Shown in pieces: positions 32,301 through 35,300 of a DNA stretch of 64,000 nt. The DNA is taken from NCBI RefSeq assembly GCF_054482525.1, contig NZ_CM137006.1; one strand, written 5' to 3'. Position 1 is the stretch's first letter; each line of letters opens with the position of its first letter. The position numbers were made by a program.

Positions 32301-35300
32301 TAAATCACACGGGTGGCACCCAGAGCAACCCCGGCATAGCTCTGCGGAATATAAAAAAAGACTAAAAATGATGCCAGAACGGCCCATATACGCATGTGCT
32401 TCATCATGTTATTAACAGCCTTAATTAAATGGCGTTATATCTGCCAGTTACAGATAGGTCAGAGAAAACCATACCTGTCCATTTGCCTTTCCCCCGGTGA
32501 CGGGATAATGTGTGGCCTTATACCTCGCCTGCATATGCAGTTTCATATCTCCGCGGGTAAGATGCACCCAGTTCTCCGGAGGCTGATTAAGTTTTACCAG
32601 CTCTCCGCTTTCATTAAATAAAGCGATAGCGATTCCGTCTGAAGCATCATTCTCCTCATCCACCGACAGCAACTCCGGCTCGTGAATATCTGACACGCCA
32701 TAAAAGGAAATCCCCACCCGCTGACTGACGACAGTGCTGCAGTCCTGAAGGTGAATATCAAAGCCCACAGAGTCCCCATACTCACCGGCGGCGTGAAATC
32801 GATTGCTGCTGAGTTGCCCCATATCCACAGTCATCTGCCTGTCTGACAGGGCAAGACTGCATGCTTCAGCAATTATTTTTCCCTGGAAGCGCATGTTTCC
32901 TCCCGGAAGCATGACATGCCAGTGGTTTCCGGCCAGTGCAGCGGGAGACAGCAAAAATAACATTATTGCCATTTTCGATATTTTCATTAATCTCACACCC
33001 GCATGGATAAAAACAGCCCTCCCTGGCCGGGTATATATCCGTTACACTGTTCTGATATTACTGGTACTGAACTTTAAAGGTGGCGTCGGCATTGGCAATA
33101 CCAGCAGTGGCCTGTCCGGTTGCATAATAGCGAGCCTGGAACGGAATTTTGTTAGTGCCATCAGTCAATGTATATTCGGATGCTGCATCTGAATTCAATT
33201 CTACAGGCTGACCTTTAGAATCTAAAATTTGGATCCCTACATTTGTTGCAGCACCTGAAGCAGAGTTTTGCAATGCAAGAACATTTGTTTTCCCTGTGAC
33301 AGGGGTCCCCGAAAATATAATTTTTGCACTTTGGGTTGGGCCGGTAGTTAAATCACAGTCATCCAGTTGAATGGTAAAACCAACAGAACCACTAGTTTTT
33401 CCATCACTCCCTAATGTGGCGCTTCGCACTTGGCCAAGCAAAACCGTCTGATCTACTGAGTTCATATTTACAGCACATGCAGCATTAACCACTTCACCCT
33501 TAAAATGAACTGTACCACCATTAACCGTGGTGGCAGCAGACGCATTTGTCGCAACACCCAGGGTCAGGGCTGAAAATACAGCCATGGAGATGAATTTTAA
33601 CTTCATATTTAATTCCTGTTTTTAATTGAACTACGCACACCGTATCTGTCATCACAACAGATACAATCAATATCCCGAACTACGGGAATCTTTTTTTCAG
33701 GAGAACTTCATAAATGCAATGTGAGAAATACACTCAGGCAGCATTTATGACATTATCTCCCGATAATATTTTCCGGATAACCGACAGGAATCTTCTCTAT
33801 AGATAAGATTCCCTGGATGATAAGCTATGGGTTAGTGTTCCTGTCTCCACACCGAATGCTTTAGCAAAAGCAGAGAAGCTGAAAGCATACCTCGTTGATA
33901 ACACCCGTACTCTCATTTGACTACAGGCTTATATTTCTCGCGTATTATGTATTGCCCCGGCGTTTTTTATTGTCCGTATTTTACAGGGAAGCAGCTTCAG
34001 CTATAGCTGATACACTATCAGTATAATAAGGAGCAAGTCTGGCAACGAGGACATTCAACCTGGTAAGGCGCCCAAGCGTTGTACTGAAATATCCATTATT
34101 CATCTGGTATTTCTCGCAGACATCTTTACGGGAATGACCACTGACCAGATAATCCTTCATAGCGAGAATAACTCTGTCACTGTGAATAGAGGAAATACCT
34201 ATCAGTAAAAAAAATTGTTCTTCAGACATGGAGCCGGATGACAGCGCGCTCTCACGTAATTTTAGTAAAAAAGCATCCCCTCCCCGGGTAATAACTTCAT
34301 GCTGTGCCATTCGATACTCCCCACCCCGCCACCTACAGGGCTGCCTTAATATTCATCCCCCATACAGGAGGGCCTGGCTCCTTAAGATATATTTAGTTTT
34401 TTATGTTGTAAACATGTATTTTGACGATCTTTTGATCTGTAAAGCTGTTTATTTTTAGGGTTATATCTTGCAGTGGATTGGTGCCTTAGTGATTAATGCT
34501 GTATAAGAATGAATATTCAGTATAAAAGATCGTTAAAATCGTTTTTTGCAACGTTCCTTACCATTGAAAAAACTATAAAAATAATGTGATAGAAATCCAA
34601 TCGTGAATATGTTTCGCATATTAAGTAAATACACCAAATACAATATAAAAACATGATAGTCACATTTGAATTGCCAAAAACAAGTCAGCCACTTATTATC
34701 CTTTTGCTTATATAGAGAGGATGATGATATGCAGAATGAAATAATGGGTTTTCTGAGCAGACATAATGGAGGGAAAACCGCAGAAATTGCGGAGGCGCTG
34801 GCGGTAACGGATTATCAGGCACGCTATTACCTGTTATTACTGGAAAAAGCAGGTATGGTTCAGCGCTCACCATTAAGACGGGGCATGGCAACATACTGGT
34901 TTCTGAAAGGAGAAAAGCAGGTGGGACAAAACTGTTCTTCCACAACTTAATAGCTTAATCTGTGGGCATGCTTCACTGAAACAGATAAAAGTTATATCAG
35001 AATGAAGATTCAATTTTGCAGCATTCATCACAAAATAGAAATTTAGTATTTTATGTCAGAATACTTCACATGATAATAAAAACCTGTCTGGATTTACTGC
35101 ATGGCCAGACATTACAAAATACAAACGCCATAAACTTCATTCAGCCTTCTTGCTGTCCGGTAACGGAGGCTGTTTTTTCGTTACGCCTTTCCCCGGCAGC
35201 ATCAGTAGCAGTAATTTATAGATTCTACGAACTGAGACTGTCTGTCCGGGGAGAACATACGCATCCCGGCGCAATGCTCCGGTCATTTACAACCTGCTTC

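Follow-up and report, generated by a model that had tools for sequence, protein, structure and literature searches.

The foc (F1C fimbriae) regulatory region of an extraintestinal pathogenic Escherichia coli as a probable pap-type Dam/Lrp phase switch with a lineage-specific third GATC site

Introduction

In the pap operon, phase variation depends on Lrp, Dam and PapI, and two GATC sites are methylated in a mutually exclusive manner in ON and OFF cells (review PMC11316696). The locus described here, which lies in a stretch of 64 kb of E. coli DNA (hereafter the window), carries two GATC sites with the spacing and context of the pap pair, and a third GATC beside one of them. This raises the questions of (i) whether the region works as a pap-type epigenetic switch, and (ii) whether the additional site is a peculiarity of this DNA or a working part of the switch. 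For the closely related sfa operon, Lrp- and Dam-dependent phase variation is attributed to van der Woude and Low (1994) in a review (PMC12388093). The locus itself is, with high probability, the well-known F1C Dam/Lrp phase switch of uropathogenic E. coli.

Results

Identity and genomic setting of the locus

The sequence identifies the locus as the control region of foc, the F1C fimbrial operon found in extraintestinal pathogenic E. coli. When 5,426 complete genomes of E. coli were searched by megablast with the 1.1-kb region, at a cut-off of at least 95% identity, 253 genomes were returned in which the region is annotated with S/F1C fimbrial regulators, the best match being that of UPEC 26-1 (99.9% identity over 1101 bp). 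Downstream of these regulators, the annotation of UPEC 26-1 lists the major subunit, sfaD, a chaperone, an usher, sfaG/focF, focG and focH, with sfaY and papX coming after them, and it also reads sfaF/focD for a gene of the locus. In the ORF list of the window a complete focA-to-focH chaperone-usher set is situated downstream of focB (Table 1), with NCBIfam matches to fimbrial subunits and a chaperone, and since these ORFs are open and agree in size and order with those of UPEC 26-1, the foc (F1C) operon is intact. By the same sequence comparison, the near-identity to annotated foc loci and the presence of focG and focH as minor/adhesin subunits assign the cluster to the F1C type. Additionally, a tRNA-Phe gene followed by an integrase-like ORF of 421 aa indicates that the foc operon resides on a tRNA-Phe-associated genomic island, of which the tRNA gene and the putative integrase ORF (14889-16427) are the boundary. 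The ORFs at 36412-37990, between foc and the ucl operon, correspond to an IS3-family transposase (with a programmed frameshift) and a truncated LuxR-family gene in the annotation of UPEC 26-1. UPEC 26-1 was also observed to possess two sfa/foc-type regulatory regions.

Table 1. Coordinates in the window of the regulatory elements and genes discussed in the text.
Feature	Position	Strand	Remarks
GATC-prox box ACGATCTTTT (GATC 34426-34429)	34424-34433	+	equivalent of pap GATC-prox / Lrp site 2 in a column-for-column alignment
Third GATC	34434-34437		lineage-specific (sfa/foc); 8 bp from GATC-prox, on its distal side
GATC-dist box AAAAGATCGT (GATC 34528-34531)	34524-34533	+	equivalent of pap GATC-dist / Lrp site 5
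Probable main focB-focA promoter (pB-type)	34384-34412	-	sigma-70 match 9/12
CRP-like site TGTGATAGAAATCCAA	34585-34600		8/10 specified bases of TGTGA-N6-TCACA
focB (= sfaB)	33981-34310	-	PapB-family regulator, heads the fimbrial transcription unit; PDB 3M8J, Pfam PF03333
sfaC	34729-34950	+	PapI-family co-regulator; PDB 2HTJ, Pfam PF04703
focA	33058-33606	-	open ORF, order as in UPEC 26-1
sfaD/focI	32448-32996	-	open ORF, order as in UPEC 26-1
focC, chaperone	31712-32407	-	open ORF, order as in UPEC 26-1
focD, usher	29012-31690	-	open ORF, order as in UPEC 26-1
focF	28472-28999	-	open ORF, order as in UPEC 26-1
focG	27947-28450	-	open ORF, order as in UPEC 26-1
focH	26986-28002	-	open ORF, order as in UPEC 26-1
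sfaY	25942-26682	-	open ORF, order as in UPEC 26-1
papX-like gene	25244-25795	-	open ORF, order as in UPEC 26-1
Switch-controlled gene set	25244-33606	-	all members open
ucl (F17-like) fimbrial operon	38620-43576	-	neighbour of foc
tRNA-Phe	14889-14964		tRNA call
421-aa ORF, phage-type (P4-type) integrase-like	15162-16427		judged by eye

Flanking regulators

A preliminary description of this DNA had placed divergent PapB-like and PapI-like genes on either side of the region, and both assignments are borne out by Pfam: the 109-aa protein encoded on the minus strand belongs to the PapB family (PF03333, E 8e-37), and its divergent neighbour, separated from it by 418 bp, encodes a member of the FaeA/PapI family (FaeA, PF04703, E 2e-29). 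FocB of the window is identical in 109/109 residues to the crystallised FocB (PDB 3M8J) and is likewise identical to the sfa regulator (SfaB) of strain 536, while the second protein aligns with PapI (PDB 2HTJ) over 73/73 residues with five substitutions (~93% identity, E 8e-42), its gene at 34729-34950 bearing the name sfaC in matching genomes. The RefSeq-style start of sfaC is a TTG at 34666 (34666-34950, 94 aa); the ATG at which homology to PapI sets in is located at 34729 (73 aa) and has AGAGAGGA just before it, and the 21 N-terminal residues of the annotated SfaC are probably not translated.

Architecture of the intergenic region

A listing of all GATCs of the window places sites at 34426-34429, 34434-34437 and 34528-34531, with none elsewhere between 33454 and 35301. 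The sites at 34426 and 34528 are separated by 102 bp, and their surroundings read GACGATCTTTT and AAAAGATCGTT, two perfect copies of ACGATCTTTT in inverted orientation; the pap-like pair and the additional GATC 8 bp from 34426, both of which had been pointed out in the preliminary description, were thereby read directly in the sequence. The 10-mer ACGATCTTTT has exactly two copies in the 64-kb window, at 34424-34433 on the plus strand and at 34524-34533 on the minus strand, and ACGATC is present in both of these inverted boxes. Furthermore, the composite pattern ACGATCTTTT-N90-AAAAGATCGT was found once in the window and in 0/100 dinucleotide-preserving shuffles, indicating that the arrangement is not due to chance.

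Comparison with pap, sfa and foc regulatory regions had been proposed as a check of the switch, and when four intergenic regions of sfa/foc were aligned with four of pap, the stretch from one GATC box to the other was free of gaps, with the site at 34426 falling on pap GATC-prox and that at 34528 on pap GATC-dist. The identity of the foc and pap intergenic regions is only 53% overall, with blocks of at least 80% identity at 34382-34439 (-10, -35 and GATC-prox), at 34510-34540, within which the GATC-dist box is located, and at 34577-34601, which contains the CRP-like site. The predicted focB promoter, with a -35 element TTTACA at 34412-34407, a 17-bp spacer and a -10 element TATCTT at 34389-34384, falls within the first of these blocks, and the transcription start of focB-focA is predicted from this sequence; in pap, Lrp site 3 overlies the -35 and -10 elements (review PMC11316696). 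The centre of the CRP-like site is ~215 bp upstream of this predicted start, and by analogy with pap TGTGATAGAAATCCAA may function as a CRP site. In a switch of the pap type, activation requires CRP at an upstream site, and Lrp has six binding sites, of which three are proximal, over the promoter, and three are distal. A scan of the intergenic region with the generic Lrp SELEX consensus YAGHAWATTWTDCTR gave 15 matches (at least 11/15) as against 11.5 +/- 3.9 in shuffles, and is thus uninformative, neither backing nor opposing a pap-type model.

The foc intergenic region differs from that of sfa in strain 536 at 12 of its 418 positions (97% identity), and none of the 12 differences is located in 34414-34468 or 34509-34603, both GATC boxes being identical. 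The ungapped collinearity with pap between the boxes, the assignment of the region to sfaC-focB/sfaB of the S/F1C fimbrial family and the near-identity to the 536 sfa region uphold the earlier interpretation of the locus as a pap-type Dam/Lrp switch.

The third GATC

The third GATC was present in the window and in 15/15 sfa/foc loci that were read. All nine sfa/foc regions sampled at first contain GACGATCTTTTGATCTGT with spacings of 8 and 94 bp, as do 536 (sfaI) and UTI89 (sfaII). An exact copy of the 30-mer in which both proximal GATCs lie is present in 236/253 complete genomes with an sfa/foc-type region, including 536 (sfaI), UTI89 (sfaII) and Nissle 1917 (foc), which rules out a mutation private to the window. 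Additionally, among 18 near-exact alleles with a single mismatch, five were read and all five retain the site. The corresponding position reads AACC in pap, TATC (one base off GATC) in afa, and TGGC and TAAC in two plasmid pap-like loci. Since the site is kept in the sampled sfa/foc alleles, including that of the prototype 536, and is absent from the pap, afa and plasmid loci, the sequences show it to be fixed in the sfa/foc lineage rather than peculiar to the window. The preliminary description presented the third GATC as a departure from the two-site pap arrangement, which is correct with respect to pap; within sfa/foc, nearly all of the operons sampled normally carry it. The site is no better conserved than the adjacent bases, as the 54-mer around it is invariant in 188/251 genomes. 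The context of the site, TTGATCTG, lacks the ACGATC of the two canonical boxes, which is the motif needed for the response to PapI.

A literature search returned no statement on the third GATC of sfa/foc, on its methylation or on its effect, and no methylome data at the locus. The third GATC most probably shares the methylation fate of GATC-prox, and it may have gone unnoticed, since restriction-fragment assays would not resolve sites that are 8 bp apart.

Natural GATC variants in related alleles

Variation in the number of GATC sites was encountered among the related alleles. Approximately 70 bp upstream of the sfaC ATG, at 34656-34660 of the window, is a polymorphic site at which Nissle 1917, ABU 83972 and 82.0311 read GATGATCAC, generating a fourth GATC (loci L002, L003 and L004, near position 748); the window reads GATAGTCAC (AGTC) and other alleles GATAATCAC. 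In the pap region of APEC O1, AACAATC replaces the proximal AACGATC (locus L010, ~position 704), which leaves this operon with GATC-dist alone; studies of pap mutants lead one to expect that such a loss biases the phase or locks it.

Two sfa/foc-type alleles, in strains N17 (L023) and 2022E04-002 (L024), have also lost GATC-prox while retaining the third GATC, with GACAATC and GACGACC (positions 155-175). Each of these alleles occurs in one genome only, the second genome having its allele in both copies. The two alleles may be genuine variants, locked or rewired, or else base-calling errors at a methylated site in long-read assemblies, the latter being conceivable because the accessions belong to the whole-genome-shotgun chromosome type.

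GATC distribution elsewhere in the window

The foc structural genes (25424-33231, 7.8 kb) contain no GATC where 20-30 are expected, and the counts of the other fifteen palindromic tetramers over the same interval are much nearer to expectation. The sfa genes of 536 and UTI89 have 3 and 6 GATCs, respectively, against 24-32 expected, and the ucl operon has 2 against 15-18 expected. GATC is likewise missing from 16083-20725 of the window and, apart from a single site at 40076, from 37215-43133. GATC-free stretches are enriched in genomic islands of ExPEC (Forde et al. 2015, PMC4659465).

Upstream of uclA, four GATCs (43606, 43663, 43712 and 43725) cluster within 43600-43730 of the window. These sites flank GATAGATTGCACCTATC (43681-43697), which was matched by sequence to a published OxyR site. 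The layout of GATCs and OxyR site at the ucl promoter resembles that of agn43, gtr and opvAB, which are OxyR/Dam switches. The OxyR site of ucl is given in the literature by position (-82 to -66) in a study that reports activation by OxyR (Hancock et al. 2022, PMC9236248) and never mentions GATC.

Discussion

Taken together, it is highly probable (roughly 0.9) that this foc regulatory region works as a pap-type epigenetic phase switch, the anatomy and sequence identities being observed and the mechanism being carried over from pap and sfa. A literature search returned nothing that directly demonstrates Dam/Lrp dependence for foc itself, as opposed to sfa, and the occupancy of the foc sites by Lrp and CRP is modelled on the known systems. 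In OFF cells, Lrp would occupy the promoter-proximal sites, thereby covering the focB promoter and shielding GATC-prox (34426) from Dam, and GATC-dist (34528) would be methylated. Following replication, SfaC, as the PapI homologue, could help Lrp to shift to the distal sites around GATC-dist; with Lrp at this position, GATC-dist would stay unmethylated while GATC-prox would become methylated, and Lrp would be kept off the promoter. CRP, bound ~215 bp upstream, and FocB would then activate transcription of focB-focA and of sfaC, locking in an ON state that is heritable. At 34434, the third GATC would lie on the margin of the Lrp region that is proximal.

This position invites the question of whether the third GATC is itself a working input of the switch that measurably changes switching, such that the kinetics of sfa/foc differ from those of pap. 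A second methyl mark beside Lrp site 2 might lower the proximal affinity of Lrp and stabilise the ON state or, alternatively, the third GATC might serve as a back-up proximal site. Its fixation across sfaI, sfaII and foc (236/253 genomes and 5/5 near-exact alleles), its absence from pap, afa and other pap-like switches, and its location 8 bp from GATC-prox in a block whose conservation with pap extends to 34433 are all in favour of such a role, as is the occurrence of additional GATCs in the relatives pef, fae and clp. However, the whole of the 54-bp surroundings is equally invariant (188/251 genomes), the TTGATCTG context is devoid of ACGATC, and the literature search produced no experimental statement on this site. 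We consider a functional third input rather unlikely; if it were true, the switching rates of sfa/foc or the stability of their ON state would differ from those of pap.

The possibility that the entire GATC architecture is an inherited relic, with foc being set mainly by FocB, H-NS, CRP and cross-talk with pap and fim and with no heritable Dam-dependent ON/OFF states, is considerably less probable still. Reviews do stress FocB, H-NS and cross-regulation for foc, and the search found no direct methylation data for this operon; yet the conservation islands coincide exactly with both GATC boxes despite the 53% overall identity of foc and pap, sfa, an operon with reported Lrp/Dam control (review PMC12388093), has identical boxes, and SfaC is intact and ~93% identical to PapI. 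The least credible proposition is that the 102-bp pair arose by chance in AT-rich intergenic DNA, which has nothing but the generally AT-rich context to recommend it and is refuted by the failure of all 100 shuffles to reproduce the composite pattern and by the recurrence of the same arrangement in pap, afa, sfa and other loci; the two exact copies of the 10-mer in the window, both at the switch, speak against it as well.

As a pap-type switch, the foc region would determine what share of the cells in a uropathogenic or probiotic (Nissle-type) population of E. coli displays F1C fimbriae. Switches of this kind are a textbook class of bacterial epigenetic inheritance, to which the region contributes nothing new.

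Among the known systems, the fimbrial operons pef, fae and clp share Lrp/Dam control and regulators of the PapI/FaeA type, and they reportedly have GATCs beyond the canonical pair, but their regulatory outcomes and the positions of their extra sites differ from those of foc. In two FaeA-type plasmid loci no paired GATC boxes were present in the stretch examined. When one representative genome per species was scanned for ACGATCTTTT-N90-AAAAGATCGT across 100,044 species, the exact 102-bp signature was matched only in Edwardsiella hoshinae NBRC 105699 (L020:12029-12534), where it adjoins a 96-aa PapB-like ORF, a fimbrial subunit and an usher, and where no PapI-like ORF of at least 55 aa was apparent in the 626 bp before the end of the retrieved locus; with this single match, the species-wide scan is uninformative regarding the third GATC. 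The afa/daa/dra (afaF-afaA) switch and two other plasmid pap-like loci share with foc the 102-bp pair in its ACGATCTTTT/AAAAGATCGT contexts and the adjoining PapI- and PapB-family genes, whereas they do not possess the third GATC and their PapI homologues are only 47-75% identical. The pap switch has the same divergent PapI- and PapB-type regulators, the same inverted ACGATCTTTT boxes at a spacing of exactly 102 bp, and also the promoter block and the CRP-like site, and differs in having two GATCs, with AACC in place of the third one of foc. The closest likeness is to sfa of 536 and UTI89, in which the genes, their order and spacing, and all three GATCs in identical contexts are the same as in the window, the differences lying in the adhesin genes (sfaS and sfaH as opposed to focG and focH), 10-12 scattered intergenic substitutions and 4-5 substitutions in SfaC.
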